Below are positions 5,958 through 46,341 of a stretch of DNA of 64,000 nt, piece by piece. Below the pieces are notes generated by a model. That model was not told the DNA's origin, searched no databases, and saw only the letters and a program-made list of their open reading frames with translations. Each line of letters starts with the position of its first letter. Position 1 is the first letter of the stretch. Location: assembly GCA_026015185.1 (NCBI GenBank), contig JAOZGX010000103.1:2127-66126 (forward strand), in the 5' to 3' direction. The stretch comes from Candidatus Bathyarchaeota archaeon (GTDB lineage Archaea > Thermoproteota > Bathyarchaeia > 40CM-2-53-6 > RBG-13-38-9). Made by a program: the position numbers and the translations under genes.

Positions 5958-6989
5958 ATGCTGGAAGATGAATTAAAATCCCTTACAATAAAAGAAGGCG
6001 CTATCCGAGCTGGAATCGCACGCAGGGAAGCTTTTTCCAATTCACCACAATCTGCGGACATGCGGTATGTAGAGCCATGGGCCAATGCTGTAGTTTCATT
6101 TGCCCTGACCCCGGGTACTTGGTGGATCGAGGATTATCTAGGTAAAGTCACCCGAATGGTGCAGAAAGCCAATGTATTCACATACTATCGCAAGACATAT
6201 TTCATCGGGGAAATCATCAAGAAACGGATAGAGGCTGCTGGATACAAGGCTCATAATATTATTCCAAATGCAATATACCGTCCCGATCATACGTTTCATA
6301 AAGAAAATCCAGATCTTGATATAAAACCACCTTTATCTTTGCGGTACATGGCTGTTGGAGCTGGTGTTGGGGCATTTGGTTGGAGCGGAAATGTCTTGGT
6401 ACCAGGAGCTTGGTCTAATATTTATTTAGGGGGAGTGATAACAGATGCTTTGCTTCAACCTGATGATCTTTTAGAAGATAACCTTTGTGATAATTGTCGC
6501 ATTTGCGCCCGCGTTTGCCCAACAGGTTTTATCCACCAAAATGAAGAAACCAGCATGGTTATTGGCGGACGTAAACACATCCATAACAAAAAACTTAGCG
6601 ATTTCCGTTGTCTCATTGGTTGTGGAGGGTATACAGGGATTTCTAAGGACGGTAAGTGGAGTACTTGGTCAACAGGCCGGACTATTCTGCCAGAAGACGA
6701 CTTGCTGCTTCCCGATATCTTTGTAAAATTACGTAAAGACCCGACCAATGTCGATGCCAATCGCAATTTAGCCTTAGAGTCTCGCGGAGTTCTGTCCCGC
6801 TCTTTGGAAGCTATGAAACCGACTTGCGCCACATGTTCCGTTGTGTGCAGCGGACCTTTGAAGTATCGTGAAAGGTTGATGAATCTATTATTCAGCTCTG
6901 GAGTTGTTGAAAAGGATGAACAGGGGAATGAAATTGTGATTAAGCGGGATGAAAAAGGAAGGAAAGTCGTAATTAGACCTGAGGGATAA
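5958..6989 (+). CDS. Fe-S cluster protein with a ferredoxin-type CxxCxxCxxxCP motif (QueG/reductive-dehalogenase-like ferredoxin domain)
   Basis: CDNCRICARVCP, plus a second Cys cluster CATCSVVCSGP and CLIGCGGY. No confident family assignment. Confidence 0.4.
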   Translation: MLEDELKSLTIKEGAIRAGIARREAFSNSPQSADMRYVEPWANAVVSFALTPGTWWIEDYLGKVTRMVQKANVFTYYRKTYFIGEIIKKRIEAAGYKAHNIIPNAIYRPDHTFHKENPDLDIKPPLSLRYMAVGAGVGAFGWSGNVLVPGAWSNIYLGGVITDALLQPDDLLEDNLCDNCRICARVCPTGFIHQNEETSMVIGGRKHIHNKKLSDFRCLIGCGGYTGISKDGKWSTWSTGRTILPEDDLLLPDIFVKLRKDPTNVDANRNLALESRGVLSRSLEAMKPTCATCSVVCSGPLKYRERLMNLLFSSGVVEKDEQGNEIVIKRDEKGRKVVIRPEG

Positions 6990-7014
6990 TCGCGTGCGGT
7001 AGCGTGCATGCTAC

Positions 7015-8958
7015 TTAGTGAGATTCAATATTCTGCAGTTTAGGCAAAGTAAAGGTGAATGTAGCCCCTTTTCCTTTACCTGATGACTCAGCCCATATTT
7101 TGCCACCATGGCCATTTATTAATCCTTTTGTGACACTTAGACCTAGACCTGTACCCTTTATATAACCAGATTTTTTGATGATATCCACAAAAGGCTCGAA
7201 AATTCTATCTATATCTTCATTTTTTATACCAATTCCTGTATCTTTTATCTGAACTTGAATACTTTTCTTCATCTTTTCAACGCTTAATTCTATTTTTCCT
7301 TTTTCGGGAGTGAATTTAGAGGCATTGTTTAGTAGGTTCATTAGAGCTTGGCTTAATCTGATGATATCCCCTTTGACAACTAAATTACCCCTTGGAACCT
7401 TAAAGTTGAATCTTTGTTTTTTTCCCTCAATTAATGGTTTAATTTCATTTACGCAATGCTGAATAACTTCTTGGAAGTCTATTGGTTTAAGGTTTAGTCT
7501 CAGCTTTCCAGATTCAATGCGTCGGATATCTAGCAGTTCGTCGACTAGATTTAAAAGGCGTTCAGTATTTCGCTTTACTATTTCTAATTCTAATACTGCT
7601 TGTTTGGGTAATTTACCTGATTTTCCTTCAATAACTCGGTCTACGAAACCTTTAATGGAAACAAGCGGTGTTCTAAGTTCGTGTGTTGCGTCTGAGATAA
7701 ATTTCTCCATCATTTCCGCACGGTCACGCTTTTCTTTTATCTTTCTAAGCTCATTTTCAGTTTGCTTTTTTTTGGTGATGTCACGAAAAATAGTATGGAC
7801 AGACTGCTCATTTTGGTAACTAATTGGAATTGCTATTATTTCGACATCAATCTCTTTGCCATATACGCTGATAAATCTAATTTCTGAGAGCGGTAAATGA
7901 TCTCCACTTTCCACAAGCATCATCTTTTCTTTTATCATATTTTGATATTCGGGATGAATCATACTTGTTATTGATTTTCCTATGAGTTCTTCAGGATTTA
8001 AATAACCAAGAATTTTTGCTGTAGCAGGATTAGCAAATATTATTCTTCCTTTTCTTAGTACAAAGATCGCATCTGGTGAATATTCAACAAGTCGACGATA
8101 ACGTTCTTCACTTTCCAATAATTCCTTAGAATGCTCGTCAATTAATTGTTCTAAAATTTCTGAATAGCTTTTAAATTCTTTCTCTAAAAGTTCGCGTTCA
8201 GTAATATCCTGTCCTATACTATATAGGAAAGTCTTATTTGATATAATTAAGGGCACAATATTAATCAAAAGCCTTTTAGATCTTCCTTGAATAATATAAT
8301 CCACCTTAATTGTTCGGCGACTAATGAAAGGCAATTGTTTTGATGCCTGAATTTTCATAATATCAGGAGGTAAATCAGCGATTTCACCAATCAAATCTTT
8401 TTTATCGCACTCGAAAAAATCAAGGGCTGCTTTATTGGCATCTATGTAACGTCCGTCTTCATTTATAATCATGATTGGGTTTAGAGCACCCTCGAATAAT
8501 ATTTTTTGTTTATAATCAATTTCAAATAATTCTTCTTCTAATTTCCTGAAATCGCTGATATCTTTTAATTCTATTAAAGCTGCCGACTTACCATTGTACT
8601 CAATTTTCTTCAAATCAATATTTACTATTTTTTCTTTATTATCATCGGAATATATTTTGGCTTCATAAGGTACAACAGGAATTCCAGATATGAGTTTAGA
8701 AAAATTTTCAGTGATAGCTGTCATGCCTTCTTTAGAGAAAAATCCTAATTCAAGAAGATTCAGCCCGATTAACTCTTTAATTTTTAAATTAATTAACTCC
8801 TCAACTTTTTGATTGACTGCTAATATTTTTCCTTCCATGGCTGTAATAAAAGCAGCATCGGTTAATTGGTCAAGAGGGATTTTGAATAGAGGAGTGTCTG
8901 GCACTCTTTTATTCTCTTTTAAGTTAATATCTATGATTTTCTCAATTTTATTACTCAA
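7015..8958 (-). CDS. PAS-domain sensor histidine kinase
   Basis: H-box ATHELRTPLVSIKGF; HATPase N-box LMNLLNNASKF; G-boxes DTGIGI and GTGLGLSVTKGLINGHGGKIW. Multiple PAS-like segments. The C-terminal ~250 aa is about 70% identical to 10951..12720. Confidence 0.85.
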   Translation of the reverse strand: MSNKIEKIIDINLKENKRVPDTPLFKIPLDQLTDAAFITAMEGKILAVNQKVEELINLKIKELIGLNLLELGFFSKEGMTAITENFSKLISGIPVVPYEAKIYSDDNKEKIVNIDLKKIEYNGKSAALIELKDISDFRKLEEELFEIDYKQKILFEGALNPIMIINEDGRYIDANKAALDFFECDKKDLIGEIADLPPDIMKIQASKQLPFISRRTIKVDYIIQGRSKRLLINIVPLIISNKTFLYSIGQDITERELLEKEFKSYSEILEQLIDEHSKELLESEERYRRLVEYSPDAIFVLRKGRIIFANPATAKILGYLNPEELIGKSITSMIHPEYQNMIKEKMMLVESGDHLPLSEIRFISVYGKEIDVEIIAIPISYQNEQSVHTIFRDITKKKQTENELRKIKEKRDRAEMMEKFISDATHELRTPLVSIKGFVDRVIEGKSGKLPKQAVLELEIVKRNTERLLNLVDELLDIRRIESGKLRLNLKPIDFQEVIQHCVNEIKPLIEGKKQRFNFKVPRGNLVVKGDIIRLSQALMNLLNNASKFTPEKGKIELSVEKMKKSIQVQIKDTGIGIKNEDIDRIFEPFVDIIKKSGYIKGTGLGLSVTKGLINGHGGKIWAESSGKGKGATFTFTLPKLQNIESH

Positions 8959-9173
8959 AAATAAATGCTCCAGAAAAAGGCAATAAACTATATAATAATA
9001 TCTAATTTTAGGCTTAAAAAAAATTTCTGGAGAGCGTACTGATTGATTATGCTCTTAAAGAAAATGTTAAGAACCAATTATCAATTATTATATACATAAA
9101 GAAATTTCAATTCATATAATATTCTATTGTGATAATTTTCAAACAAAATATCTTTTGAAATGGCGGAAATATT

Positions 9174-9905
9174 TTGAAAAAATATTCTTCTATGATTTCT
9201 GGCTTAGACGACATTCTCGATGGGGGCTTTCCTAGACCCTCATCAATAGGGATTATTGGAGAGGTTGGATCAGGAAAATCTCTTCTATGTTGGAATCTAA
9301 TGATAAATGCATTAAAACAGGAATACAATGTCTTGTATTATCTGACAGAAGAATCAAAGGAAGAAATGAAAGAAAATATATTACAATACGGATGGGATAT
9401 TGATGATTATGAGAATAAGGGAAATCTAAAAGTAGTTGATATTTTTTCAAAAGGTGTTGACTTAGCCAGAGAATCCCTTATGGAACCTGAGGCGTTAATG
9501 AAGGAATCATTTAATTTCTTCGAAATACTCAAGGAAGGAAGGAATTATTATTTTGGCGCTATTCGAGGAAAGGACCTTGTAGTTTTTTTTGACTCATTAT
9601 CAACAATTTTTTTAGCTATGGAAACGAAGAAAGCATTAGCCTTTCTTCAAAATTTAAAAATGGCAACAAGAGTAGCTCGGTGTGTAGGAATAGCCACCCT
9701 TCATACAAAAGTCCATGATGAGATAATTGAAAATATATGCAAAACTAATGCTGATGGAATAATTCAATTAAGTTCTATAGAAAAAGAAAAAGAACTGGAA
9801 TATTATTTGCGAATATTAAAAATGTCAAGATCTAATTTCTATCAGGGAATAGTTAACTATCGTACTTCAGATAAAGGAGTTGCATTTACGAAAGTTAAGA
9901 TATGA
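9174..9905 (+). CDS. KaiC-like / RecA-superfamily single-domain ATPase
   Basis: SGLDDILDGGFPRPSSIGIIGEVGSGKS (Walker A) in the KaiC/RadA-paralog arrangement. Confidence 0.7.
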   Translation: MKKYSSMISGLDDILDGGFPRPSSIGIIGEVGSGKSLLCWNLMINALKQEYNVLYYLTEESKEEMKENILQYGWDIDDYENKGNLKVVDIFSKGVDLARESLMEPEALMKESFNFFEILKEGRNYYFGAIRGKDLVVFFDSLSTIFLAMETKKALAFLQNLKMATRVARCVGIATLHTKVHDEIIENICKTNADGIIQLSSIEKEKELEYYLRILKMSRSNFYQGIVNYRTSDKGVAFTKVKI

Positions 9906-9984
9906 CCTTAGTGAATCATATATGAATTTTAATAACAATAAATGCTCCTAACGAAATTTGAAAGTACGCACTGAAGGTTAAAAT

Positions 9985-10863
9985 ATGTTAAAAGCTAGCG
10001 GATTTTTTGATCTTACGAGGATAAGATATATTATTTTTCTCAATATCCCTTTGTTGCTATCTGCTTTTATTCTTGCTAAAAATTTTGATTTAAGACTGAT
10101 TCTTTTTATATGCATTTCATACTTCTTTGCTCATTTCTTTGTAAATGCTATAAACGACTTATATGATGTTGAAGAAGATAGAATTAATCGAATAAAATCT
10201 GTTGAAAATCCAATATGTTCTGGAAAAATCTCTAGAAAAGAGGGAAGATATATAACAATTACGTTACCATTTTTTGCTATATTATTTGCTATTCCAACAA
10301 ATCTAATATGGTTGGGTGCAATTATATTCACAATTTTTTTAGGCTGGTCTTATAGCGCACCACCTATTAGAGCTGAGATGAAGCCATGGGGTTTTCTAGT
10401 AAATGAATCTCTTGGAAGCAGTGTTGGATTTGTATGGACTTATTTAGCAGTAAAACCGACTAATTTGAGTTTGCCTTTTTGGGTATTTCCTATTGCCCTT
10501 TTCATATTCTTCAGCCACGCGATAATTATTAGTAAGGATCTTCCCGACATGAAATCAGACCGAGAATATGGCTTTAGGACTTTTGCCTTAGTTTATGGTG
10601 TTAGAACCACTCAAAGATTCATAATTCTGAGTATAATTCTATCATTAATAATCTACTTATACCTCTTAGTGATCGGTATTTTCTCAATTATCAGTTTACC
10701 TTTCGCAATTATCGGTGCGATCTTACCATTGAAGAATATTTCAAAACCTCTTAACCAATTGACAGATCGCCATCTTATTTATCAGAAGGTGATACCTGGA
10801 AGTTTATTCTATTCGATTAGCTTAATATTAGGTTTAGCAGGAAAACTTGTAATTCCATTTTAG
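9985..10863 (+). CDS. UbiA-family integral membrane prenyltransferase
   Basis: NAINDLYDVEEDRIN (NDxxDxxxD) and a second Asp-rich motif KDLPDMKSDREYG. About 8 TM helices. TAG stop. Confidence 0.8.
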   Translation: MLKASGFFDLTRIRYIIFLNIPLLLSAFILAKNFDLRLILFICISYFFAHFFVNAINDLYDVEEDRINRIKSVENPICSGKISRKEGRYITITLPFFAILFAIPTNLIWLGAIIFTIFLGWSYSAPPIRAEMKPWGFLVNESLGSSVGFVWTYLAVKPTNLSLPFWVFPIALFIFFSHAIIISKDLPDMKSDREYGFRTFALVYGVRTTQRFIILSIILSLIIYLYLLVIGIFSIISLPFAIIGAILPLKNISKPLNQLTDRHLIYQKVIPGSLFYSISLILGLAGKLVIPF

Positions 10864-10950: not shown

Positions 10951-12720
10951 TTAAACAATCTCCAGTTTAGGCAAAGTAAAGGAAAATGTAGCTCCTTTTC
11001 CTTCACCTGATGACTCAGCCCATATTTTGCCACCATGAGCCTCCACGAGTCCCTTGGTGACACTGAGGCCTAAGCCAGTACCTTTAAAATAAATAGATTT
11101 TTCGATATTCACAAAAGGTTCAAAAATCCTCTCAAGATCCTTTTTCCTAATGCCTATGCCCGTATCTTTTATTTGAACTTGAATACTTTTCTTCATAGCT
11201 ACAACATTAAGTACTATTTTTCCACCTTCAGGAGTAAATTTGGAGGCGTTGTCTAACAGATTCATTAGAGCTTGACTGAGTCTGACAATATCCCCTTGGA
11301 TGGATAAGCGACCCTTTGGAACTTTCAAGTTAAATCTTTGTTTTTTTTGTTCAATGAATGGTTGAATTTCCCTTGTGCAATTCTGAATAATTTCTTGTAA
11401 GTCCATAGGCTTAATGTTTAGTTCTAACTTTCCAGATTCCATGCGTCGGACATCTAACAGATCGTTGGTTAAACTAAGAAGGCGATCAGTATTTCGCTTC
11501 ACCACCTCTAGCTCTGAAGCAACTTTCTCAGGTAGTAAGCCTACCTTTCCTGAAATAACACGATCTAAGTAACCTTTGATCGATACAAGAGGCGTTCTAA
11601 GCTCATGGGTAGCAGTAGAAATCAATCGATCCATAATTCGCATGCGTGTTTCCTCCTCTTTGGCTCTTCTCATAGCCTTTTCCGCTCGATTGCGTTCAGT
11701 GATGTCACGCATTATAATAAGTCTGCCACCAAGCCGATCGATAATACCGGTCAGAAAGGACATGCGCAAATCGTAGATACGTTGGTCATCTCCTTTACCA
11801 AACACAACTTCCTTGTTTATCTCGGTTCTATTGGAGAAGTCTTCTGCTAGACCAGACCATTCAATCCATACCTTTTCTATAGGTTGCCCAATGACTTCCG
11901 AAAATCTACGGCCTATCAATTTTTCAGTAGAAGAATTCATTTCCACAATATTGTTCTTCGAGTCCAACAAAATAACCGCATCTCTCATTCTGTTAAATAT
12001 AATCCCATGCGCCATTGGCATAATATCTGTCGCACGTAAAGAAATTAGCCTCCATATTAGTATCGGAGTACATATAGTAACTGCTAACGGTGTTGGGTCG
12101 AAGTAAGGAAAAGCATCTGGATAGAAGTATGTAATCATATTAAATATCCAAGGAATAAGCACCACCAATAGCAAAGGCGTTGCTTGCCGGCGATAGAGGG
12201 GGTTTGATTGAATTATGCCTTGGATAAATACAATGGTACCTACTAGAATTAATATATATGAATACGTCAAAAAGAACCCAAACCATAAACCAGGTTCGAT
12301 AATCAGTAAAAAGAATGGATTAATGGCATTCAATGCAATGGAACTCCAGTATAGGCCATGAAAATCATTAGTGAAAATTATTAACAAGGTAGCGATGGGT
12401 ATTACAATTAAAAGTACTAAGTTACGACGTTTCAACCAATTCTCGCGATGGGTAAGCTGTAACGCAAGGATAAACCACATAATAGGCACCATAACAACGC
12501 CAATGTATTGCGTTTTCCTAAATAGAAGCTTGATCTGAAGGTTATCGCTCCCCACCTCCAGCGTGGACGCTAGTAGCCAAATAGCACCAGCTAGCATTAT
12601 CATTGCCCCCACTCGATAAGGACTCTTAAACTTATTAGGTTGCAAAAGAATGTAGAATGCCGCTACGCTTTGTGTAATAGATAATCCTATTAATAGGATC
12701 ATGTATGATGTAATTTCCAA
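10951..12720 (-). CDS. Membrane-anchored sensor histidine kinase (N-terminal multi-TM sensor, PAS, HisKA, HATPase)
   Basis: About 7 N-terminal TM helices. ATHELRTPLVSIKGY H-box, LMNLLDNASKF, GTGLGLSVTKGLVEAHGGKIW. Paralog of 7015..8958; the shared 3' region is also highly similar at the DNA level. Confidence 0.85.
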   Translation of the reverse strand: MEITSYMILLIGLSITQSVAAFYILLQPNKFKSPYRVGAMIMLAGAIWLLASTLEVGSDNLQIKLLFRKTQYIGVVMVPIMWFILALQLTHRENWLKRRNLVLLIVIPIATLLIIFTNDFHGLYWSSIALNAINPFFLLIIEPGLWFGFFLTYSYILILVGTIVFIQGIIQSNPLYRRQATPLLLVVLIPWIFNMITYFYPDAFPYFDPTPLAVTICTPILIWRLISLRATDIMPMAHGIIFNRMRDAVILLDSKNNIVEMNSSTEKLIGRRFSEVIGQPIEKVWIEWSGLAEDFSNRTEINKEVVFGKGDDQRIYDLRMSFLTGIIDRLGGRLIIMRDITERNRAEKAMRRAKEEETRMRIMDRLISTATHELRTPLVSIKGYLDRVISGKVGLLPEKVASELEVVKRNTDRLLSLTNDLLDVRRMESGKLELNIKPMDLQEIIQNCTREIQPFIEQKKQRFNLKVPKGRLSIQGDIVRLSQALMNLLDNASKFTPEGGKIVLNVVAMKKSIQVQIKDTGIGIRKKDLERIFEPFVNIEKSIYFKGTGLGLSVTKGLVEAHGGKIWAESSGEGKGATFSFTLPKLEIV

Positions 12721-20619: not shown

Positions 20620-21990
20620 ATGGTATTTTCTGAATTAAAACTAGAGGAAGTTGAATCGAAAATGTTTTCGCATAAAATTAAGGTTTTACTTATCATTTTC
20701 ACTTTATGCTCTATGATTTCAATCGAAACAGGTTTTAGGACAAGGATATTTGTACAAGCTGAGAATAGTGTGGATAATGGCGACATTGAAAAAGTAAGAA
20801 TAGTGGATAGAGACGCTTTAAAGAAAAAGATCGATGAAAATGAAGATTTTGTTCTATTTGATGCGCGTACCTTAAAGAGTTACGAAAAAGAGCATATAAT
20901 AGGCGCGATATCTCTTCCTGTCAATGAGGCTGAAGTTAGGGTCGGGACCATCATCCCAGATAAGAATAAAGAGATAATTGTTTATTGCAGTAGTAAATAT
21001 TGTCCTGAAAGTTCTCTTTTAGTGGAAATACTTGTTGATTTGGGCTATACAAATGTAGCGCATTATGAGGGGGGAATCGATGATTGGAAAGAGGTAGGAT
21101 ATCCAACAGAGAAAAATGAGCGCGCGCGCTTACCTGTAGATGCTCAACAAGATTACACAATAATCTCTAATGAAATAGATTCGACTGTAGTTTTTGATGG
21201 AAAATGGACTACTGATGAAGAATGGAAAAATGGAACTCCAATATCTATGAGATTTAATCCTACTGCGCAAAATGTTGGCCTCATAAATAACGGTACGGTA
21301 TATTGTCAAATAAAGCGTGATGGTGAGGAATTATTCGTTCTGATCGATGCTGTTTCATCCCCAGATCCTTCTGGGAATTATACATCTGGATGGGATTTCT
21401 ATGGAGTGTGTATCGACTCTAATAATGAAAAGTCTGAATACCCGATGAAAGACGATTTAATTATTTCATTGACTTGGTTACTTCAAAATGGGAGCTACTG
21501 GGTAATGAATGGTTTTGGTAGAGTTACAGAGCCTGGATGGGATGCGGCAAATGCAAGAAAAGATCCTGTATACCTAAAACACTCAATTAGTTCATCACCA
21601 TTGTCTGAGAAACCCCATGTAGTATGCGAATTAGCCATTCCATTAGAAGATATGGGTGATGAAATTGGTTTTGGAGTAGTTGCTATTAATTTTTCAAACA
21701 AAACCATTAATACGTGGCCAGACAATTTTGTGGACGGTTCACCCAAAACTTGGGGAACTGTGATTATTAACAAAACAACCGAAATCATTGAGACACCAAT
21801 TTCTATTCAAACAACTAAACCAGCTCAAAATCAAACTGCACCTCCTCCAACTGAAGAAATCGATAAGAATGGTTCGATGAATATTTGGGAATCTCTCTCT
21901 TCACAAACAATTTTCATATTAATTATTGGTGTTATACTGGTTGTCGCGATTATTTTTATAGCTAGGAAATTACTAAAAAGAAAGAAATGA
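20620..21990 (+). CDS. Secreted, membrane-anchored rhodanese-domain protein with a C-terminal beta-rich domain and a Pro/Thr linker
   Basis: Rhodanese fold FVLFDARTLKSYEKEHIIGAISLP ... IIVYCSSKYC (active-site Cys loop) ... YEGGIDDWKEVGYP. The likely start is M15 (signal peptide MFSHKIKVLLIIFTLCS). C-terminal TM plus KRKK. Confidence 0.7.
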   Translation: MVFSELKLEEVESKMFSHKIKVLLIIFTLCSMISIETGFRTRIFVQAENSVDNGDIEKVRIVDRDALKKKIDENEDFVLFDARTLKSYEKEHIIGAISLPVNEAEVRVGTIIPDKNKEIIVYCSSKYCPESSLLVEILVDLGYTNVAHYEGGIDDWKEVGYPTEKNERARLPVDAQQDYTIISNEIDSTVVFDGKWTTDEEWKNGTPISMRFNPTAQNVGLINNGTVYCQIKRDGEELFVLIDAVSSPDPSGNYTSGWDFYGVCIDSNNEKSEYPMKDDLIISLTWLLQNGSYWVMNGFGRVTEPGWDAANARKDPVYLKHSISSSPLSEKPHVVCELAIPLEDMGDEIGFGVVAINFSNKTINTWPDNFVDGSPKTWGTVIINKTTEIIETPISIQTTKPAQNQTAPPPTEEIDKNGSMNIWESLSSQTIFILIIGVILVVAIIFIARKLLKRKK

Positions 21991-29637: not shown

Positions 29638-31089
29638 TTAATGAGGGCGTTTACTCTTTCTACCAACTCTATAAGTCAGAATTATTGCAGCTAAAGCTAT
29701 TATAAGAGCTATAATCGCTATTGTTTCTAGAATTGGAGGGCTCACTTGAGCAGGTATTACTGGTTCTCCCTGTCTCATACGTTCTGCTTCTGCTCTCATT
29801 TTGACCAGATGTTCCCTCATCGGAGCATATCCTTCCCAATGCATGTAATCCGAGCTCTCATGGAAAGCACCTTGGAACATTCGGTTATGCCATTGTTCTA
29901 GCATTAAGTAGAGATCTTGCTCTATAGGGGTAGGAGAGGTATAGAAAGCAAGCATAAATGGATAGTTGTATGGATAAGTCTCTGGCTTCTGGATCACCCC
30001 CTCCTCGTACAGCTCTGCGACTAATCTTACACCTTCTGCAAGCAAATGAATTGACTCCTTAGTTGTAGCTTCATATTGTGTAAACTGTTTATCTATATAC
30101 GACTCTGAGTGGCATCTAGAGCAAATCTGTATTTCTTTCTGCCTCACACTTTGGAATTCTTCATCTGATAATCTAGCTATTCTCAAATCCTTTACAACAT
30201 CAAGAAGAACGCCTGGTTCGCCTTCAGGGGTGAGAACTGCGAGACCTTTTAAAACTTCAGCATTATCTTCTGCCCACTCTGGATCATCTGCTAAAGGCCC
30301 AACACCAGGGCCTAGTAGGCCATAAAAACCATAGGCTGTGATAGAATTATGATCTCCGTTGTCCATATGACATGTGATACAAACTGGGGCTTGATTGGGC
30401 CACTGTTCGTTATAAGGATAATCCCAAGTATAGTTTTCTCCTCTTGTATCATAGATTATGCCATGCTTTGAGCTTATGAACATTTCATAAGTTGGGTGGT
30501 CAAATCCCATGTGACAGGTTCTACATGCCTCTGGTTTTCTAGCCTCAATAACAGAGAATGTATGCCTAGTATGGCAAGAGTCGCATTTTGCTCCAGGCGT
30601 ATCAGCGACACCAGGTGTACTTGGTCCCCAATTTGGAATGTCTCCTGACGCTCCAATTCTATGGCAGTAACCGCAACCCTTCCACTTTATTGTTTCATTT
30701 ATTTGCAGCACATTCTCGGCTACGACCTCCATTGCAAGCCATGCCAGATGATGTTTTCCTTCAACGAATTGCTCAACCCTTTGGGGATGGCATGATTTAC
30801 ATGGCGTTTCAGTTGGCATTACTAAAGCTTCATGATTCTGGCCATGGCAGGTATCACAATAGATTTCGTTTTGAGCATGTTTACTCATATTCCAAGATTG
30901 GACCAATCCAGGCATAGTTGTTACATGACAATTTATGCAATCTTGACCAGTATAATTGCCCTTCATCTGCTGGGCCTGAACTGCAATAATGCTCTCTTCT
31001 GCATTGCTCAAGGTATAGTTACTAAAAAGCAAAGAAGAAGTGGTGAATGAAATTAGAAGCAAAATGAATATGATACTGTTATATCGCAT
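29638..31089 (-). CDS. Octaheme c-type cytochrome (HAO/octaheme-reductase-like), signal peptide and C-terminal TM anchor
   Basis: Eight CxxCH motifs read in the translation: CINCH, CDTCH, CKSCH, CGYCH, CDSCH, CRTCH, CITCH, CSRCH. The likely start is MRYNSIIFILLLISF. C-terminal hydrophobic helix plus RKSKR. Confidence 0.8.
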   Translation of the reverse strand: MRYNSIIFILLLISFTTSSLLFSNYTLSNAEESIIAVQAQQMKGNYTGQDCINCHVTTMPGLVQSWNMSKHAQNEIYCDTCHGQNHEALVMPTETPCKSCHPQRVEQFVEGKHHLAWLAMEVVAENVLQINETIKWKGCGYCHRIGASGDIPNWGPSTPGVADTPGAKCDSCHTRHTFSVIEARKPEACRTCHMGFDHPTYEMFISSKHGIIYDTRGENYTWDYPYNEQWPNQAPVCITCHMDNGDHNSITAYGFYGLLGPGVGPLADDPEWAEDNAEVLKGLAVLTPEGEPGVLLDVVKDLRIARLSDEEFQSVRQKEIQICSRCHSESYIDKQFTQYEATTKESIHLLAEGVRLVAELYEEGVIQKPETYPYNYPFMLAFYTSPTPIEQDLYLMLEQWHNRMFQGAFHESSDYMHWEGYAPMREHLVKMRAEAERMRQGEPVIPAQVSPPILETIAIIALIIALAAIILTYRVGRKSKRPH

Positions 31090-31171
31090 CCTCTTCAATG
31101 GGATTAGCTCCAAATAAAAATAGTCTATCAATACATTCTATGTTTTTTATTTATTTAATAATTTGCATGTA

Positions 31172-40190: not shown

Positions 40191-40407
40191 ATTTCATTTC
40201 CTCTATCTATTTATGCAGATTTTAAATTCATACTTATTATTTACAGGATTTACAGATTACTTTTCTTTTGAACAGACTTAAAGCGCAGGATTAACTAATC
40301 CGATTTTTCTTTTGTTATCTTCAATACGATAATTATTAGGTAATCCTAATTAGGTAAACCTAATAAGTAACCAAGTATATATAAGATTTTTCATGGGGTA
40401 GGTAAAA

Positions 40408-40833
40408 TTGAAGGAAGAAGCGGTAACCGAGAGTATTGAGAACTATTTGGAAGCTTTGTTGAGGGCTAACGAACAAGGCCAAGATTTAACCCAAATAAAA
40501 TGGATCGCTGAGTATCTTGAAGTAGCTCCTCCTAGCGTAGTAGAAATGTTGCGGAAGATGGAGAAAGAAAATTATGTTGAATATTTACCGAGGAAAGGAG
40601 TTAGACTTACCGGTAAAGGGAAAAAGATTGCAAAAGCGGTTATTCGCAATCATCGCCTTATAGAGGTCATGATGGAGAAAACACTTCATATACCTATAGA
40701 TCACGAAAGCGTTTGTGGAATAGAGCATCATATGTATAGAGATTTCACTAATGCATTATGCACTTTATTAAATCATCCTAGAAAATGCCCACACGGGGAA
40801 TTAATTCCTAAAGGTGAATGCTGTCCTAAATAA
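40408..40833 (+). CDS. DtxR/MntR-family metal-dependent transcriptional regulator with a C-terminal Cys tail
   Basis: wHTH IAEYLEVAPPSVVEMLRKMEKENYVEY and metal-site helix RNHRLIEVMM, plus CPHGELIPKGECCPK. Confidence 0.8.
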   Translation: MKEEAVTESIENYLEALLRANEQGQDLTQIKWIAEYLEVAPPSVVEMLRKMEKENYVEYLPRKGVRLTGKGKKIAKAVIRNHRLIEVMMEKTLHIPIDHESVCGIEHHMYRDFTNALCTLLNHPRKCPHGELIPKGECCPK

Positions 40834-40920
40834 AATAAATCACGGCATTAGTGCGCATTCCTCGTATACACATGAATCTTTATTAAATTCAAAATTTTCT
40901 AGAGTTCTTGGTTAAATAGT

Positions 40921-44048: not shown

Positions 44049-44129
44049 TATTTCTCATCTTCAACTGGCTTGAGAGAGAATAATAATCAAAAAGCTATTT
44101 AAATTCAAAGAAAGGCCTTTTTAATTGAT

Positions 44130-44609
44130 ATGTCCTCGGTATCTGAACTGATATCCTACGCTAATGAAATAGCAACGAAAATGGGTTTGCATAAATCTCT
44201 TGATATCGAAGTTGATTCGAGATTTGGCTTTAATTATTATAGTAATACAAAAGAATTTCATAGAATTAGATTAACGGATTTTAATAAATCAGAACTTTTA
44301 CATGAGCTTGGTCATGCTTACATGTCCGAAAAGTTAACCAAACTTTATAGAATCTTTGAAAAAGTAATGAAGGCATTAAACATTCTCGCTGCAAGGTATG
44401 GCGAAGTTGGTGATTTTGTAAGTAATGTGATTTATAGTATTATTTTGTTTTTGTATTTTCTATTTGGAATCTTTATTGCATTTGAAAATAGTTCACCGGC
44501 AATTTTATTACCATTAATGATATTTGGAATAATTTTAATTATCCCTGTTATTGATGAGTTACTAGCTACGTATTTTGGAAATAAATTCAAGGCGCAAAAA
44601 AGAAAATGA
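44130..44609 (+). CDS. HExxH-motif membrane protein (putative small Zn-metallopeptidase-like)
   Basis: SELLHELGHAYM plus C-terminal TM helices. First gene of a 5-gene overlapping + strand run. Confidence 0.4.
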   Translation: MSSVSELISYANEIATKMGLHKSLDIEVDSRFGFNYYSNTKEFHRIRLTDFNKSELLHELGHAYMSEKLTKLYRIFEKVMKALNILAARYGEVGDFVSNVIYSIILFLYFLFGIFIAFENSSPAILLPLMIFGIILIIPVIDELLATYFGNKFKAQKRK

Positions 44610-44923
44610 ATGATTCTTCATGGGTTTTTGCGATTGAAGAAGATAAGTTAATTGAAGATAGCATGCATGTTGCCTTCCCAAAGGGGATACCAATTATCCT
44701 TATAAAAAAAGAAGGCAAGATTTATGCTGTTTCGAATAAATGCGCTCATATGGCTTGTCCACTTTCAGGAGGGACTCTTGTAGATCATACTCTAACGTGC
44801 CCATGTCATGATTGGAAGTATGACATAAGAACAGGCGAATTTCTTCACGCAAAAGAAATAAAAATACCTATCTATCAATGGAAACTAGATAAAGGCAAAA
44901 TATTTGTAAAAATTGAAGGTTGA
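44606..44923 (+). CDS. Rieske [2Fe-2S] domain protein
   Basis: CAHMACPLSGG ... CPCHDWKY (CxH...CxxH). ATGA overlap with the upstream gene. Confidence 0.75.
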   Translation: MNDSSWVFAIEEDKLIEDSMHVAFPKGIPIILIKKEGKIYAVSNKCAHMACPLSGGTLVDHTLTCPCHDWKYDIRTGEFLHAKEIKIPIYQWKLDKGKIFVKIEG

Positions 44924-45176
44924 AAATATGGTAAAAGTAGTTATGTATACTCTAAGTACTTGCCCTTGGTGTAGGAAAACAAAGCAATTCTTTACCGATA
45001 AAAAGATCCCTTTCGACTTCATAGATTACGATTTGGCAGATGAGAAGGAACAAGAGAGGATAAAGAGTGAAATGTCGAAGTACGGCGGCTCAATAGCTTT
45101 TCCATTTGTAATAATTGGAGAAGAGGCTATTGTTGGATATAACCCTGAGAACTATGCAGAGTTATTGGGGTTGTAG
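44913..45176 (+). CDS. Glutaredoxin-like (NrdH/Grx family) protein
   Basis: CPWC active site in a thioredoxin-fold context (VVMYTLSTCPWCRKTKQFF). TAG stop. Confidence 0.75.
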   Translation: MKVENMVKVVMYTLSTCPWCRKTKQFFTDKKIPFDFIDYDLADEKEQERIKSEMSKYGGSIAFPFVIIGEEAIVGYNPENYAELLGL

Positions 45177-45190
45177 AAAGGAAAATAAAG

Positions 45191-45526
45191 ATGAATGTTG
45201 AATCAAGAAAAAAGGCTCTAAGATATCTGTTTCAAAGAGTAATAGATCCTTTGGGCTACAAATTTAGTCCGGATCAGGAGATAGTTGATTTCCTGCTTGA
45301 ACAAGAGGTATCCTTGGAGCAGAAACATGGAATTCCATTCTGCCCTTGTCAGGGCCTAGCAAATAATCGAGAACAAGATATGAAGATAGTATGCCCTTGC
45401 ATTCCGTATCACAGAGAACATTTTGATGCTATGAAACGATGTTGGTGCGGATTATACGTACACAAGGACGTTACTGATCCTGATAAACTTAGACAAATTC
45501 CTGCTAGTGAGTTCGAAAGTGGTTAA
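45191..45526 (+). CDS. Ferredoxin:thioredoxin reductase catalytic-subunit-like protein
   Basis: CPC-x15-CPC-x14-CWC matches the FTR catalytic CPC...CPC...CHC arrangement, with His replaced by Trp. Confidence 0.65.
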   Translation: MNVESRKKALRYLFQRVIDPLGYKFSPDQEIVDFLLEQEVSLEQKHGIPFCPCQGLANNREQDMKIVCPCIPYHREHFDAMKRCWCGLYVHKDVTDPDKLRQIPASEFESG

Positions 45527-45923
45527 AATGTTCACTGAAGTAGCGAAAGTTAGCGAAATATTCCCTGGTGGAATGAAAGCTGTTGCTTCAAATGGGAAAG
45601 AAATTTTGCTATGCAATTTTGAGGGCAAGATATATGCTGTGGAGAAAAGATGCGGTCATATGAACGCCCCATTAAATCTCGGCACCCTTGAAGGATATAT
45701 TATAACTTGCCCAATGCATCATGTTCAGTTTGACATGAATACAGGTGAAGCATTAAGCCTTCCCATCCCTCATTATTTCGGAAAAGAACCGATGCCTGAT
45801 AAAGTTGATGAGTTTTTCAAATATAGAGGAGAGCTGAGCAAGCACATTAAAGTTCGAAATCTTAAGACATACCCTGTCAAAATAGATGGAGACACTATAA
45901 AGATAGATACTAAGACTTGTTAA
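45507..45923 (+). CDS. Rieske [2Fe-2S] domain protein (second copy)
   Basis: CGHMNAPLNLG ... CPMHHVQF. Confidence 0.75.
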   Translation: MSSKVVKMFTEVAKVSEIFPGGMKAVASNGKEILLCNFEGKIYAVEKRCGHMNAPLNLGTLEGYIITCPMHHVQFDMNTGEALSLPIPHYFGKEPMPDKVDEFFKYRGELSKHIKVRNLKTYPVKIDGDTIKIDTKTC

Positions 45924-45930
45924 CTAAAAA

Positions 45931-46341
45931 TCAAGTTCGCTCATTTAGGAATTTTAAAATTTTTTCATGTATTAAATTGCGTATTCTTCTAAAATTCTCT
46001 TTTGATGTCATGTAAGGATCCTTGATATCCCAGACAATTATTTTTTCTTTATTGTTGGATGGTAGGTTCATAAAATCATTCTCAATAGAGCCATCCAGCA
46101 AAATAACCTTATCAGCCCAATTCAGCAAGTCTTGAGTGACTCCTTTTGGCTTATGATTGGTAATATTGATTCCTAATTCACGCATGATCTCTACAGAACC
46201 ATCTATAACATGCGTATATGGTTTTACTCCAGCACTTTTTGCTTCATCATGATTATTGTTCTTTTTTGATTCAAAATTGAATAATCCTTCAGCCATTGGA
46301 CTTCTGCAAGCGTTGCCTATACAAACAAATAATACTTTCAA
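45931..46341 (-). CDS. Low-molecular-weight protein-tyrosine-phosphatase family / ArsC-type arsenate reductase
   Basis: P-loop VLFVCIGNACRS (CX5R) with downstream Cys residues, typical of thioredoxin-coupled ArsC. Confidence 0.7.
   Translation of the reverse strand: MKVLFVCIGNACRSPMAEGLFNFESKKNNNHDEAKSAGVKPYTHVIDGSVEIMRELGINITNHKPKGVTQDLLNWADKVILLDGSIENDFMNLPSNNKEKIIVWDIKDPYMTSKENFRRIRNLIHEKILKFLNERT

Follow-up and report, generated by a model that had tools for sequence, protein, structure and literature searches.

A run of plus-strand genes at 44130-45923 in the 64,000-nt stretch of archaeal DNA analysed here (the window) raises the question of why two small Rieske [2Fe-2S] proteins should be encoded on either side of a glutaredoxin-like (Grx-like) redoxin and a protein with the catalytic cysteines of ferredoxin:thioredoxin reductase (FTR). 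An earlier note on this DNA had read the five genes as one operon for a self-contained electron relay that reduces thiols, with Rieske proteins rather than plant-type ferredoxin as donor. We favor, at a probability of roughly 0.6, a version of this reading in which four of the genes form a thiol-reducing relay, with Rieske proteins carrying electrons to a disulfide reductase of the FDR type and to Grx. FDRs are described in the literature as [4Fe-4S] disulfide reductases related to the FTR catalytic domain (FTRc). The features discussed are these:

44096-44103, plus strand: TATA-like element TATTTAAA, 26 nt upstream of ATG 44130 (pattern search)
44130-44609, plus strand: HELGH protein ORF, 159 aa; its last 4 nt (ATGA) are shared with the start of Rieske1
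44606-44923, plus strand: Rieske1, a soluble Rieske [2Fe-2S] protein, 105 aa (PF00355, E 1.6e-18)
44928-45176, plus strand: Grx-like redoxin, 82 aa from ATG 44928; longest ORF from TTG at 44913 (PF00462, E 7.4e-13)
45191-45526, plus strand: FTR-catalytic/FDR-like disulfide reductase (FTRc), 111 aa, single domain (PF02943, E 3.8e-26)
45528-45923, plus strand: Rieske2, a Rieske-type ferredoxin, 131 aa from ATG 45528; longest ORF from GTG at 45507 (PF00355, E 9.6e-17)
45931-46341, minus strand: neighbour with an LMWPc domain (PF01451), convergent, 7 nt past the cassette

Layout of the locus

The five plus-strand ORFs described earlier are all found in the ORF list at the coordinates then given, and Pfam agrees that they include a Rieske protein, a CPWC glutaredoxin, an FTR-catalytic-like protein and a second Rieske protein. 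The short spacing and overlaps reported for them hold as tight packing, but overlaps of 11 nt and 20 nt arose because the longest ORF was taken for Grx and Rieske2, and they vanish when the starts are placed at ATG 44928 and ATG 45528, after the gene calls in close relatives. With these starts the first two of the five genes overlap by 4 nt and the later junctions leave, in order, 4, 14 and 1 nt between genes, a packing that remains as tight as in an operon. The TATA-like element sits in the 81-nt divergent intergenic region upstream of the HELGH gene, with no further match to the pattern within 44104-45923; over the whole window such matches are no more frequent than expected (17 against 20.5), and we regard 44096-44103 as a weak candidate, by sequence, for the archaeal promoter of a leaderless five-gene transcript. 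A sigma-70 promoter scan of the window found 11 matches where 10.2 are expected, which is no enrichment, and the same scan saw no intrinsic terminators, both results being uninformative for an archaeon; Rfam and tRNA scans of the window gave no matches.

The first gene does not belong to the conserved unit, and the five-gene module of the earlier note is thus reduced to four. Its product had been described as an HExxH membrane protein, and HELGH and two C-terminal hydrophobic helices are indeed present, but the five-residue HExxH motif is not by itself diagnostic of a zinc metallopeptidase, and the protein has no Pfam, NCBIfam or PDB family match even at E up to 10. Its homologues form 12 clusters, each at least 82% identical, all in a narrow Bathyarchaeia lineage, and the one at 100% comes from a Ca. 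Bathyarchaeota MAG; the gene is syntenic with the cassette in every relative that has it and absent at the other 80 loci, these being the reference-genome loci that we examined out of 336 GTDB species matched to the family. A dN/dS of 0.28-0.38 indicates a coding gene under constraint weaker than that on the cassette genes, whose values of 0.04-0.15 reflect strong purifying selection. The HELGH gene is probably co-transcribed with the cassette.

The convergent gene beyond Rieske2 had been read as an ArsC-type phosphatase needing a Trx/Grx reductant, and the relay could on this view supply reductant to an adjacent arsenate reductase. The LMWPc-fold gene lies only 7 nt beyond the cassette and its best NCBIfam matches are ArsC models, although these fall far under their cutoffs (69.4 vs 174.3 bits). 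However, the gene is on the opposite strand and is kept beside the cassette only in the window's lineage (L001, L088-L091), and at 0 of the 80 other loci. The phosphatase P-loop is present (CIGNACRS, CX5R), Cys7 and Cys12 are the only cysteines, and Asp and Phe align to Cys82 and Cys89 of the Trx-coupled ArsC of S. aureus (pI258 type). Since the Cys82/Cys89 relay pair is missing, the protein looks like a low-molecular-weight protein-tyrosine phosphatase, of which its CIGNACRSP and DPY motifs are typical, and the arsenate link fails; that reading is largely refuted and we consider it very improbable.

The four cassette proteins

The FTRc protein scores 91.6 bits against PF02943 (FeThRed_B; cutoff 22), covering profile positions 4-103 of 106, and carries the signature CPC-x14-CPC-x13-CWC with exactly six cysteines (C51, C53, C68, C70, C84 and C86) that are invariant both in 25 close homologues and in 80 diverse superfamily members. 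Trp85, His74 and His77 are also conserved, W85 being invariant in the subfamily, and all 120 of the closest homologues have CWC with 14/13 spacing. An AF2 model built from the diverse 80-sequence alignment reaches a pLDDT of 94.9, and all 13 of its significant Foldseek PDB matches are FDR or FTR catalytic chains (TM 0.57-0.69), led by 7pwe and 4tpu (TM 0.68-0.69). The FTR-like catalytic fold and six-cysteine site proposed earlier are therefore borne out by model, Foldseek and invariant cysteines. A separate model from the 25 close homologues was discarded (pLDDT 60.7, below 50 in the cluster region). The statement that the active-site His is replaced by Trp holds against plant-type FTR but not as a local event, as the position varies superfamily-wide and His is itself a minority (Y 29, W 25, H 22, F 19 among 150 prokaryotic superfamily representatives); the Trp of CWC is a subfamily hallmark.

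Sequence and model comparisons place the enzyme in the FDR branch (4tpu, 7pwe) and not with plant FTR. The M. acetivorans FDR (4tpu) is its best PDB sequence match (E 8.6e-13) and one of its top structural matches (TM 0.69, against about 0.6 for classical FTR), and the two have in common the FTR-catalytic fold and a cluster/disulfide site built from six cysteines as CPC...CPC...CxC; the spacing is nearly the same, 14/12 in 4tpu and 14/13 here, and Trp85 of CWC aligns to the Tyr of CYC, both aromatic residues standing in place of the plant His. Whereas the cassette protein consists of the 111-aa catalytic domain alone and the Rieske protein has a gene of its own downstream, 4tpu has a fused C-terminal rubredoxin domain and its gene is not encoded with Rieske proteins. 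Rubredoxin-type members form separate superfamily representatives, and since one occurs as a separate neighbouring gene in Methanoperedens (L019), where the FDR type and the cassette type stand side by side, the two are distinct systems. The second relative, the Grx/FDR fusion of Desulfotalea psychrophila (7pwe), matches both the cassette Grx (E 8e-7) and FTRc (E 1e-8) and has its Grx-like and FDR domains in cassette gene order, although it is fused and has CYC rather than CWC; it has no known Rieske partners, and no paper on it was found in the literature searched.

Plant and cyanobacterial FTRs (EC 1.8.7.2; 1dj7, 2pvd, 7c3f) share the catalytic fold (TM 0.58-0.61), the same six cysteines and the common logic of two one-electron inputs for one disulfide reduction, but their sequence similarity to the cassette enzyme is marginal (E about 1e-3). 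Their signature is CPC-x16-CPC-x8-CHC with His86 at the active site; they pair with a variable subunit (FTRv), receive electrons from a plant-type [2Fe-2S] ferredoxin and reduce thioredoxin. Neither a scan of nine proteins around the cassette nor the recurrent neighbours revealed an FTRv-like domain. We also note that no NCBIfam model names any of the four cassette proteins, every match being under its cutoff; the model closest to FTRc, 'FtrB family double-selenoprotein', gives 40 bits where 160 are required.

The redoxin has the active site STCPWC with a cis-Pro (FP). CPWC is present in 74 of 78 orthologues, and S10, T11, C12, P13, W14, C15, F58 and P59 are each at least 95% conserved. With best PDB matches to 3nzn and 5cax (Methanosarcina Grx/MRX, E about 1e-17), it is most closely related to the methanoredoxin-type Grx of Methanosarcina, a Grx-like disulfide reductase according to the literature, whose CVWC differs from the CPWC seen here. 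The gene context suggests that its reductant would be the FTRc enzyme rather than glutathione or coenzyme M. 

All four cassette proteins are small and soluble, and the two Rieske proteins both pass the PF00355 gathering score, with ligands at least 95% conserved in each family (56 sequences each). Rieske1 contains CAHMAC...CPCHDWKY, in which the CxH...CxxH ligands are accompanied by the extra Cys pair of the bc1/b6f type, and this aligns column for column with the b6f Rieske protein 8hn2 (CTHLGC...CPCHGAKY). The protein has exactly four cysteines; C46, H48, C51, C65, C67, H68 and W70 are each at least 95% conserved. Its sequence has no twin-arginine (RR) motif and no N-terminal hydrophobic segment, no cytochrome b gene was found among the cassette neighbours (Pfam scan at the locus, recurrent neighbours elsewhere), and the best PDB similarity is to a dioxygenase Rieske ferredoxin (2qpz, E 6.6e-10). 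Rieske2 has CGHMNA...CPMHHVQF without the extra pair and, compared with dioxygenase ferredoxins, has about 28 additional residues inserted, which split the PDB alignment; its PDB matches are Rieske ferredoxin and oxygenase components of dioxygenases and monooxygenases, led by 2qpz (E 1.4e-16), with no bc1/b6f-type Rieske among them. The extra Cys pair is found in 93 of 95 Rieske1 orthologues and paralogues and in 0 of 61 Rieske2 orthologues, and scores of 138-222 bits on the own HMM against 57-78 on the other's separate the two cleanly; they are distinct families.

Conservation, co-evolution and fusions

Conservation in other genomes, which the earlier note had named as the check on its reading, was found for the four-gene order in both archaea and bacteria. 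Rieske1, Grx, FTRc and Rieske2 occur in the same order and strand at 54 of the 80 loci, which span at least 15 archaeal and bacterial lineages, and three further loci are cut by contig ends; since these are unrelated genomes, the arrangement is far beyond chance. Another 19 loci are of a Methanosarcinaceae type, in which Grx and FTRc are preceded by one, two or three copies of Rieske1 and Rieske2 is absent from the cassette. The family is matched in at least 336 species, including methanogens, Methanoperedens, Bathyarchaeia and an Asgard archaeon, and its bacterial holders include Omnitrophota, Nitrospirota and soil Actinomycetota, so that the cassette is not specifically archaeal. Matrices of pairwise identity are correlated among the four genes (r 0.49-0.73, with 0 of 500 Mantel permutations reaching the observed value), and a Nitrospirae cassette is as close to that of the window as other Bathyarchaeota cassettes are, which argues that the unit was transferred whole. 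These comparisons indicate that the four genes evolve together and are passed between domains by horizontal transfer. Carriage on known plasmids is without support, as tblastn of FTRc against a plasmid collection gave no match.

Gene fusions follow the cassette order and in Rosetta-stone fashion support a relay. Grx is fused to FTRc in 7pwe and in P0123, a metagenomic CWC-type protein flanked by both Rieske genes, and FTRc is fused to a Rieske domain in P0132 and P0145, each with Grx upstream. Five other apparent fusions (P0133, P0154, P0137, P0140 and P0210) were set aside, as they look like frameshifted read-throughs, either of adjacent genes or of the genuine fusion. Across the superfamily the domain order is [Grx or Trx]-FTRc-[rubredoxin-like or Rieske], the domain after FTRc being a one-electron input of either the rubredoxin or the Rieske kind. 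The position of the Rieske2 gene after FTRc matches that of the fused Rieske domain, although the latter scores at cross-family level against both HMMs and was rejected as either Rieske1 or Rieske2 type; it is a third lineage, and the fusion is therefore silent on which cassette Rieske docks FTRc. Co-conservation in both domains strongly backs the core idea of a self-contained module with Rieske, FTR-like and Grx-like components, and co-evolution and fusions support it as well.

A survey of same-strand abutting ORFs found a nitroreductase-family gene downstream of FTRc at 14 Methanosarcinaceae loci and upstream of Rieske1 at 8 Thermoleophilia loci, an Fe/Mn SOD beside the cassette in 8 Thermoleophilia loci, and a peroxiredoxin in which TGA (selenocysteine) takes the place of the peroxidatic Cys codon, directly upstream in L084-L087. 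Nitroreductase flavoproteins, SOD and this selenoprotein as neighbours suggest a role in repairing thiols during oxidative stress; the associations are lineage-specific and represent a few independent events.

The proposed relay and its alternatives

We propose that genes 44606-45923 constitute a self-contained, horizontally mobile four-gene redox module. Its centre would be an FDR-type enzyme with the FTR-catalytic fold, a CWC active site and a [4Fe-4S] cluster lying beside a redox-active disulfide; the enzyme would accept single electrons from a soluble Rieske protein and spend them in pairs on the CPWC disulfide of the methanoredoxin-like Grx, the product of the preceding gene. Once reduced, Grx would pass electrons to client disulfides or thiol-dependent enzymes, probably to repair thiols and detoxify peroxide. 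As direct donor Rieske2 is the most likely candidate, in the role played by the C-terminal rubredoxin domain of the Methanosarcina FDR, and Rieske1 may serve the module as another carrier or as an element gated by redox state. A flavoprotein is the probable entry point for electrons, given the nitroreductase-family genes directly beside the cassette in two unrelated lineages, and the chain would then be akin to the reductase, Rieske ferredoxin and terminal enzyme of three-component Rieske oxygenase systems. Those systems use a flavoprotein reductase, and both cassette Rieske proteins are closest to their Rieske ferredoxins (2qpz); however, the cassette is without an oxygenase subunit, its electrons would end at a disulfide reductase of the Fe-S kind, and the bc1-type Cys pair of Rieske1 goes beyond dioxygenase Rieske ferredoxins. 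Domain identities, Cys/His signatures, fold, co-conservation, co-evolution and fusions were computed here, and from them we infer the cofactor content, protein contacts, direction of electron flow, donor and clients of the relay model. Judged by gene context, Rieske proteins are a likelier donor than plant-type ferredoxin, and the Grx-like redoxin a likelier acceptor than thioredoxin.

The direction of electron flow has to be weighed with care. By textbook values, Rieske centres usually lie at about -150 mV or higher and the disulfides of FTR, Trx and Grx at about -200 to -320 mV, and Rieske-driven reduction may therefore be uphill unless the Rieske protein is unusually low or the Grx unusually high in potential. 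The same module run backwards would be a thiol oxidase or disulfide generator, in which the Grx dithiol is oxidised at the cluster/disulfide site of FTRc and its two electrons leave singly via the Rieske proteins to a flavoprotein or other acceptor. This direction would be downhill with Rieske potentials that in textbooks are typically above those of dithiol/disulfide couples, Rieske1 has the high-potential hallmarks of an extra Cys pair and a CPCH..[KR][YF] box, and nitroreductase-family neighbours are equally possible as acceptors or donors. The hallmarks are incomplete, however, as a conserved Trp in Rieske1 replaces the potential-raising Ser of the bc1 type and the Tyr is Phe in most orthologues, and a peroxiredoxin among the neighbours consumes reduced thiols. 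A cytoplasmic disulfide generator would also be unusual for methanogens, Bathyarchaeia and other anaerobes, and every FTR or FDR characterised so far is reductive. We consider the reversed module unlikely, in both its thiol-oxidising step and the onward step to an acceptor.

For the forward direction, the M. acetivorans FDR is reported to reduce Trx5 and methanoredoxin, the latter being the closest solved relative of the cassette Grx (Prakash et al., 2018), and an FDR reportedly reduces an NrdH-like redoxin for the class III RNR of M. barkeri (Wei et al., 2015).

The thiol-reducing relay that we prefer leaves unexplained why two separately conserved Rieske families are needed and why a cytoplasmic Rieske1 bears a bc1-type Cys pair. 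Rieske2 cannot be a universal donor, since it is absent in Methanosarcinaceae. One alternative makes Rieske1 a client: Rieske2 or a flavoprotein would supply electrons to FTRc and Grx, and these would reduce or control the cluster-adjacent disulfide of Rieske1; the outcome would be a switched potential or stability, or aided maturation, and the cassette would be a redox-gated electron carrier system. The Cys pair is kept in a cytoplasmic Rieske protein without a Tat signal, Rieske1 always immediately adjoins Grx, and Methanosarcinaceae have two or three Rieske1 paralogues with single-copy Grx and FTRc. Contigs with Grx and the FTRc-Rieske fusion show no Rieske1 in the little upstream sequence present, which would suggest that the core relay may work without it, although these contigs are short and the absence is not established. 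However, an in vivo disulfide of the Cys pair is only supposed, and a client Rieske1 would be given no output function. Both the client role and the gated outcome strike us as quite unlikely, and we retain Rieske1 as a member of the module.

To our knowledge FTR-type enzymes are the only Fe-S disulfide reductases that couple one-electron donors to two-electron disulfide reduction, and the donors we know of are ferredoxin, directly or through a fused rubredoxin. A Rieske-wired version would, if true, be a new electron-input route to thiol redox control, and would raise the thermodynamic question of how a Rieske centre drives disulfide reduction. It would also give a function to widespread small genes annotated singly as 'Rieske', 'glutaredoxin' or 'ferredoxin-thioredoxin reductase', and never as a system; no published description of the Rieske-Grx-FTRc-Rieske cassette was found in our literature search, although an earlier mention is still possible. 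We tentatively entertain the further idea, doubtful as it is, that the cassette represents a new class of thiol-reducing system, free of low-potential ferredoxin and of NADPH-flavoenzyme thioredoxin reductases, in which two Rieske proteins cooperate at one FTR-type [4Fe-4S]/disulfide site. The two could deliver sequential electrons at different potentials, or the Cys pair next to the Rieske1 cluster could itself act as a further disulfide relay coupled to Fe-S chemistry. As Rieske clusters are relatively stable to oxygen, the cassette would be a horizontally traded, oxygen-tolerant thiol-repair kit, which if true would serve anaerobes and microaerophiles of both domains.

A conserved four-gene cassette

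The five + strand open reading frames at 44130-45923 reported in the earlier note are present, and Pfam assigns Rieske, glutaredoxin, FTR (ferredoxin:thioredoxin reductase) and Rieske domains to the last four. The G+C content of the window is approximately 36%, and the features are:

Open reading frames of the cluster
44130-44609, + strand: HExxH protein, 159 aa, with HELGH and two hydrophobic helices
44606-44923, + strand: Rieske1, Pfam PF00355, E 1.6e-18
44913-45176, + strand: Grx (longest ORF), glutaredoxin-like with CPWC, Pfam PF00462, E 7.4e-13
45191-45526, + strand: FTRc, FTR catalytic chain, Pfam PF02943, E 3.8e-26
45507-45923, + strand: Rieske2 (longest ORF), Pfam Rieske, E 9.6e-17

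The packing is as tight as expected of an operon, but the 11-nt and 20-nt overlaps described previously are a product of choosing the longest ORF; gene calls in close relatives place the starts of Grx and Rieske2 at ATG 44928 and ATG 45528, and with these starts the junctions between the five genes are -4, +4, +14 and +1 nt. A pattern search finds a TATA-like TATTTAAA element 26 nt upstream of ATG 44130, and pattern and terminator scans found neither a second TATA-like match nor a terminator-like site within the cluster; these signals hint weakly at a single leaderless transcript spanning 44130-45923.

At E <= 1e-5 there are 752 FTRc homologues, the best 120 of which are both archaeal and bacterial, share 68-96% identity, and without exception contain CPC-x14-CPC-x13-CWC. 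In a survey of one genome per GTDB species, relatives were present in 336 species, and among the best 80 loci analysed the order Rieske1-Grx-FTRc-Rieske2 is preserved on one strand in 54, with three further cassettes interrupted by contig ends. Nineteen loci of Methanosarcinaceae type have one to three Rieske1 paralogues followed by Grx and FTRc without Rieske2, and the four exceptions are FTRc-Rieske2 (three) and Rieske1-FTRc-Rieske2 (one). Methanolobus sp. ZRKC2 and Ca. Ferrigenium straubiae are examples of carriers in culture. Archaeal carriers include Bathyarchaeia, Methanoperedens, Methanolobus, Methanomethylovorans, Methanococcoides, Methanocellaceae and a Promethearchaeota MAG, and bacterial carriers include Nitrospirota, Omnitrophota, Thermodesulfobacteriota, Chloroflexota, Acidobacteriota, Thermoleophilia, Bacteroidota, Fibrobacterota, Spirochaetota, Elusimicrobia and a Gallionellaceae isolate.

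Within the lineage of the window, strong purifying selection acts on all four cassette genes (dN/dS 0.04-0.15). Mean identity is highest for FTRc (69%, with Grx, Rieske1 and Rieske2 at 48-52%). The pairwise-identity matrices of the four genes are correlated (r 0.49-0.73), with the observed value reached in none of 500 Mantel permutations, and a Nitrospirae cassette (80% identical to the window in FTRc, 65% in Grx, 65% in Rieske1 and 60% in Rieske2) is no farther from the window than are other Bathyarchaeota cassettes. On the evidence of the matrices and the Nitrospirae cassette, the cassette is both inherited and transferred horizontally as a unit. We are much more confident that the four genes constitute one functional module than we are of the overall mechanism proposed below.

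The conserved arrangement, envisaged earlier as four or five genes, does not extend to the HExxH protein, which is absent from the 80 other cassette loci. It is 100% identical to NCBI entry NWF08_08550, has no family match in Pfam, NCBIfam or the PDB, and its homologues fall into only 12 clusters, none less than 82% identical and every one in the same syntenic context; its dN/dS of 0.28-0.38 indicates a coding gene under less constraint than those of the cassette. The convergent LMWPc-fold gene at 45931-46341 (- strand), whose start in relatives varies to give 121 or 136 aa, also adjoins the cassette only in the window's lineage. It had been read as an ArsC-type phosphatase needing a thioredoxin (Trx) or Grx reductant, a reading that we reject: the only cysteines are Cys7 and Cys12 within the P-loop CIGNACRSP, in the alignment with S. 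aureus ArsC, Asp and Phe take the place of the relay pair Cys82/Cys89, and the protein falls far below the NCBIfam ArsC model cutoffs. The cysteine pattern, the low ArsC scores and a DPY motif make it look like a low-molecular-weight protein-tyrosine phosphatase. That the cassette serves to support an ArsC neighbour, as the adjacency in the window could suggest, is very improbable given the missing relay and the restriction of the pairing to one lineage.

We also note a gene for an iron-dependent repressor of DtxR type (PF01325/PF02742 in relatives), whose place 3-4 kb upstream of the cassette is conserved across the lineage of the window (window ~40300-40850, + strand; L001:1559-1945 and L088:316-702 in related loci).

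The CWC enzyme and its probable redox partners

FTRc is a PF02943 superfamily member of the FDR (ferredoxin:disulfide reductase) branch. Its best sequence matches are the FDR of M. acetivorans (4tpu, E 8.6e-13) and the Grx/FDR fusion of Desulfotalea (7pwe, E 1e-8); classical FTR chains give E values of only about 1e-3. Structural modelling, suggested earlier as a check, supports the assignment of the fold: the predicted structure, built from a diverse 80-sequence alignment, is confident (pLDDT 94.9, pTM 0.85), all 13 significant Foldseek PDB matches are FDR or FTR catalytic chains, and TM scores are 0.68-0.69 to 7pwe and 4tpu and 0.57-0.61 to classical FTR. In an alignment of 80 diverse superfamily members, some as little as 23% identical, no columns other than the six cysteines and Pro69 are invariant.

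Trp85 does align with the active-site His of FTR, and with the Tyr of FDR, but it is not the local substitution implied by the earlier note, as CWC is present in 120 of 120 relatives. Among 150 superfamily representatives the equivalent residue is Y in 29, W in 25, H in 22, F in 19 and L in 7, and W accompanies 14/13 cysteine spacing, whereas the other residues accompany 14/12; Trp is thus a subfamily hallmark rather than a loss of the catalytic His. By these sequence criteria the CWC proteins are a distinct subfamily on the FDR branch, with His74 and His77 conserved in the longer CPC-CWC linker. FTRc lacks two defining features of M. acetivorans FDR (the rubredoxin domain and CYC) and two of plant FTR (CHC and 16/8 spacing), and no variable subunit gene was found next to the cassette. 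Ca. Methanoperedens has, approximately 500 nt downstream of its CWC cassette, another FTRc-like gene, of FDR type, whose product ends in a rubredoxin-like domain (L019:6199-6705, + strand), which argues that the two systems are not interchangeable copies.

The solved structures most similar to Grx are 3nzn and 5cax, Grx/methanoredoxin proteins of Methanosarcina (E about 1e-17), methanoredoxin being a Grx-like protein disulfide reductase; these structures have CVWC, whereas CPWC is found in 74 of 78 cassette Grx orthologues. Rieske1 and Rieske2 represent distinct families: scores are 97-166 or 138-222 bits with the HMM of the same family, compared with 40-79 bits when the HMMs are exchanged. 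Two additional cysteines of bc1/b6f type (CxHxxC...CxCH) occur in 93 of 95 Rieske1 members, aligning column for column with a b6f Rieske, and in none of 61 Rieske2 members. Rieske2 has an insertion of approximately 28 aa. Among solved structures, its nearest relatives are without exception Rieske proteins of dioxygenases or monooxygenases, for the most part the ferredoxin component, and none is of bc1/b6f type.

NCBIfam contains no model naming any of the four proteins, and a full-text literature search of incomplete reach found no description of the cassette, so an earlier mention is possible.

A candidate electron relay and its alternatives

An exhaustive search of 1.84 billion representatives yielded only 302 superfamily members, and domain fusions among them are informative as to likely partners. 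P0123 is a Grx-FTRc(CWC) fusion flanked by Rieske1-type and Rieske2-type genes in four contigs, P0132 and P0145 join FTRc(CWC) to a Rieske domain and are immediately preceded by a Grx gene, the solved structure 7pwe joins Grx to FDR, and further architectures are Trx-FTRc, FTRc-Grx, Grx-FTRc-DUF3422 and FTRc-rubredoxin-like. Most fusions place the redoxin N-terminally and a one-electron metal center (rubredoxin or Rieske) C-terminally, and the cassette order Grx-FTRc-Rieske2 matches this predominant order, suggesting that Grx is the probable substrate of FTRc and that Rieske2 probably corresponds to the rubredoxin domain of FDR. In 2018 Prakash and co-workers reportedly proposed that this rubredoxin domain passes electrons from ferredoxin to the active-site cluster. 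HMM comparison places the Rieske domain fused to FTRc in a third Rieske lineage, and the fusions are therefore ambiguous as to the docking partner.

Most of the genes that directly adjoin the cassette on its own strand are specific to a lineage, but some recur. A nitroreductase-family flavoprotein gene directly follows FTRc in 14 Methanosarcinaceae loci lacking Rieske2 and directly precedes Rieske1 in eight Thermoleophilia loci, the differing positions pointing to independent recruitment. An Fe/Mn superoxide dismutase gene directly follows Rieske2 in eight Thermoleophilia loci, and FMN reductase and glutamate-cysteine ligase genes each abut two cassettes. In L084-L087, where the cassette has the form Rieske-[Grx-FTRc fusion]-Rieske, an AhpC/Prx gene (L084:3056-3667) precedes it by 20 nt; although annotated as pieces of 57 and 142 aa, this gene forms a single reading frame in which an in-frame TGA falls exactly on the codon for the peroxidatic Cys (FYPADFTFV-TGA-ATE), and the product is probably a selenocysteine peroxiredoxin. 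Guilt by association over this handful of independent events suggests flavoprotein electron input and output in peroxide detoxification and thiol repair.

We propose that a flavoprotein or other donor would reduce a Rieske carrier, most likely Rieske2, which would feed electrons one at a time into the [4Fe-4S] cluster of FTRc; once two had accumulated at the cluster/disulfide site, as happens in FTR and FDR, they would reduce the CPWC disulfide of Grx, which in turn may serve clients such as peroxiredoxins. By analogy, the mode of working would resemble that of the Methanosarcina FDR/methanoredoxin and FDR/NrdH pairs and of plant FTR/Trx. We assign this scheme as a whole a probability of roughly 0.6.

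Typical Rieske potentials lie above those of Trx-type and Grx-type disulfides, and on these textbook values thermodynamics is the main difficulty for Rieske-driven disulfide reduction. The module might instead run in reverse as a thiol oxidase, which we consider unlikely. Rieske1 is the main feature that the relay leaves unexplained, being universally retained and multiplied in Methanosarcinaceae. No Tat signal was found in it, so it should be cytoplasmic, and its cluster-adjacent Cys pair (C51/C67) would then sit in a reducing compartment. A slimmer chance attaches to Rieske1 being a regulated client of the system rather than one of its carriers.

Variants and other observations

Several variants of the system deserve mention. 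In two seawater metagenome loci (L082 and L083) the Grx upstream of P0132 has SPYC, with Ser replacing the first active-site Cys, which suggests monothiol chemistry in a reduced two-gene version. An in-frame TAG at a non-conserved position of the cassette Grx gene of an uncultured Methanosarcinales (L047:4876) could reflect read-through, in a pyrrolysine-decoding order, or a pseudogene, and the L079 Grx gene is frameshifted in a long-read assembly. In the Grx-FTRc-DUF3422 proteins (P0219, P0242 and P0270; 614-648 aa) a disulfide reductase of FTRc type is combined with a large domain of unknown function. Three tandem nitrogenase-like (NifD/K/E/N-type) paralogues of ~475 aa are convergent to the cassette and nitroreductase gene in Methanomethylovorans and Methanolobus (L031, L035, L036, L044, L045, L052 and L053, about 5970-10300, - strand), probably as lineage synteny.

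Elsewhere in the window of this archaeal MAG, genes for two PAS-domain sensor histidine kinases are near neighbours at 7015-8958 and 10951-12720 (both - strand), and a rhodanese-domain protein is encoded at 20620-21990 (+ strand). The 497-aa protein at 29638-31131 (- strand) has a hydrophobic N-terminus and eight CxxCH heme-binding motifs, and weakly matches a hydrazine dehydrogenase/HAO-type octaheme cytochrome model (E 4.9e-28, well short of the cutoff); an octaheme cytochrome c in a Bathyarchaeota MAG may merit a look.
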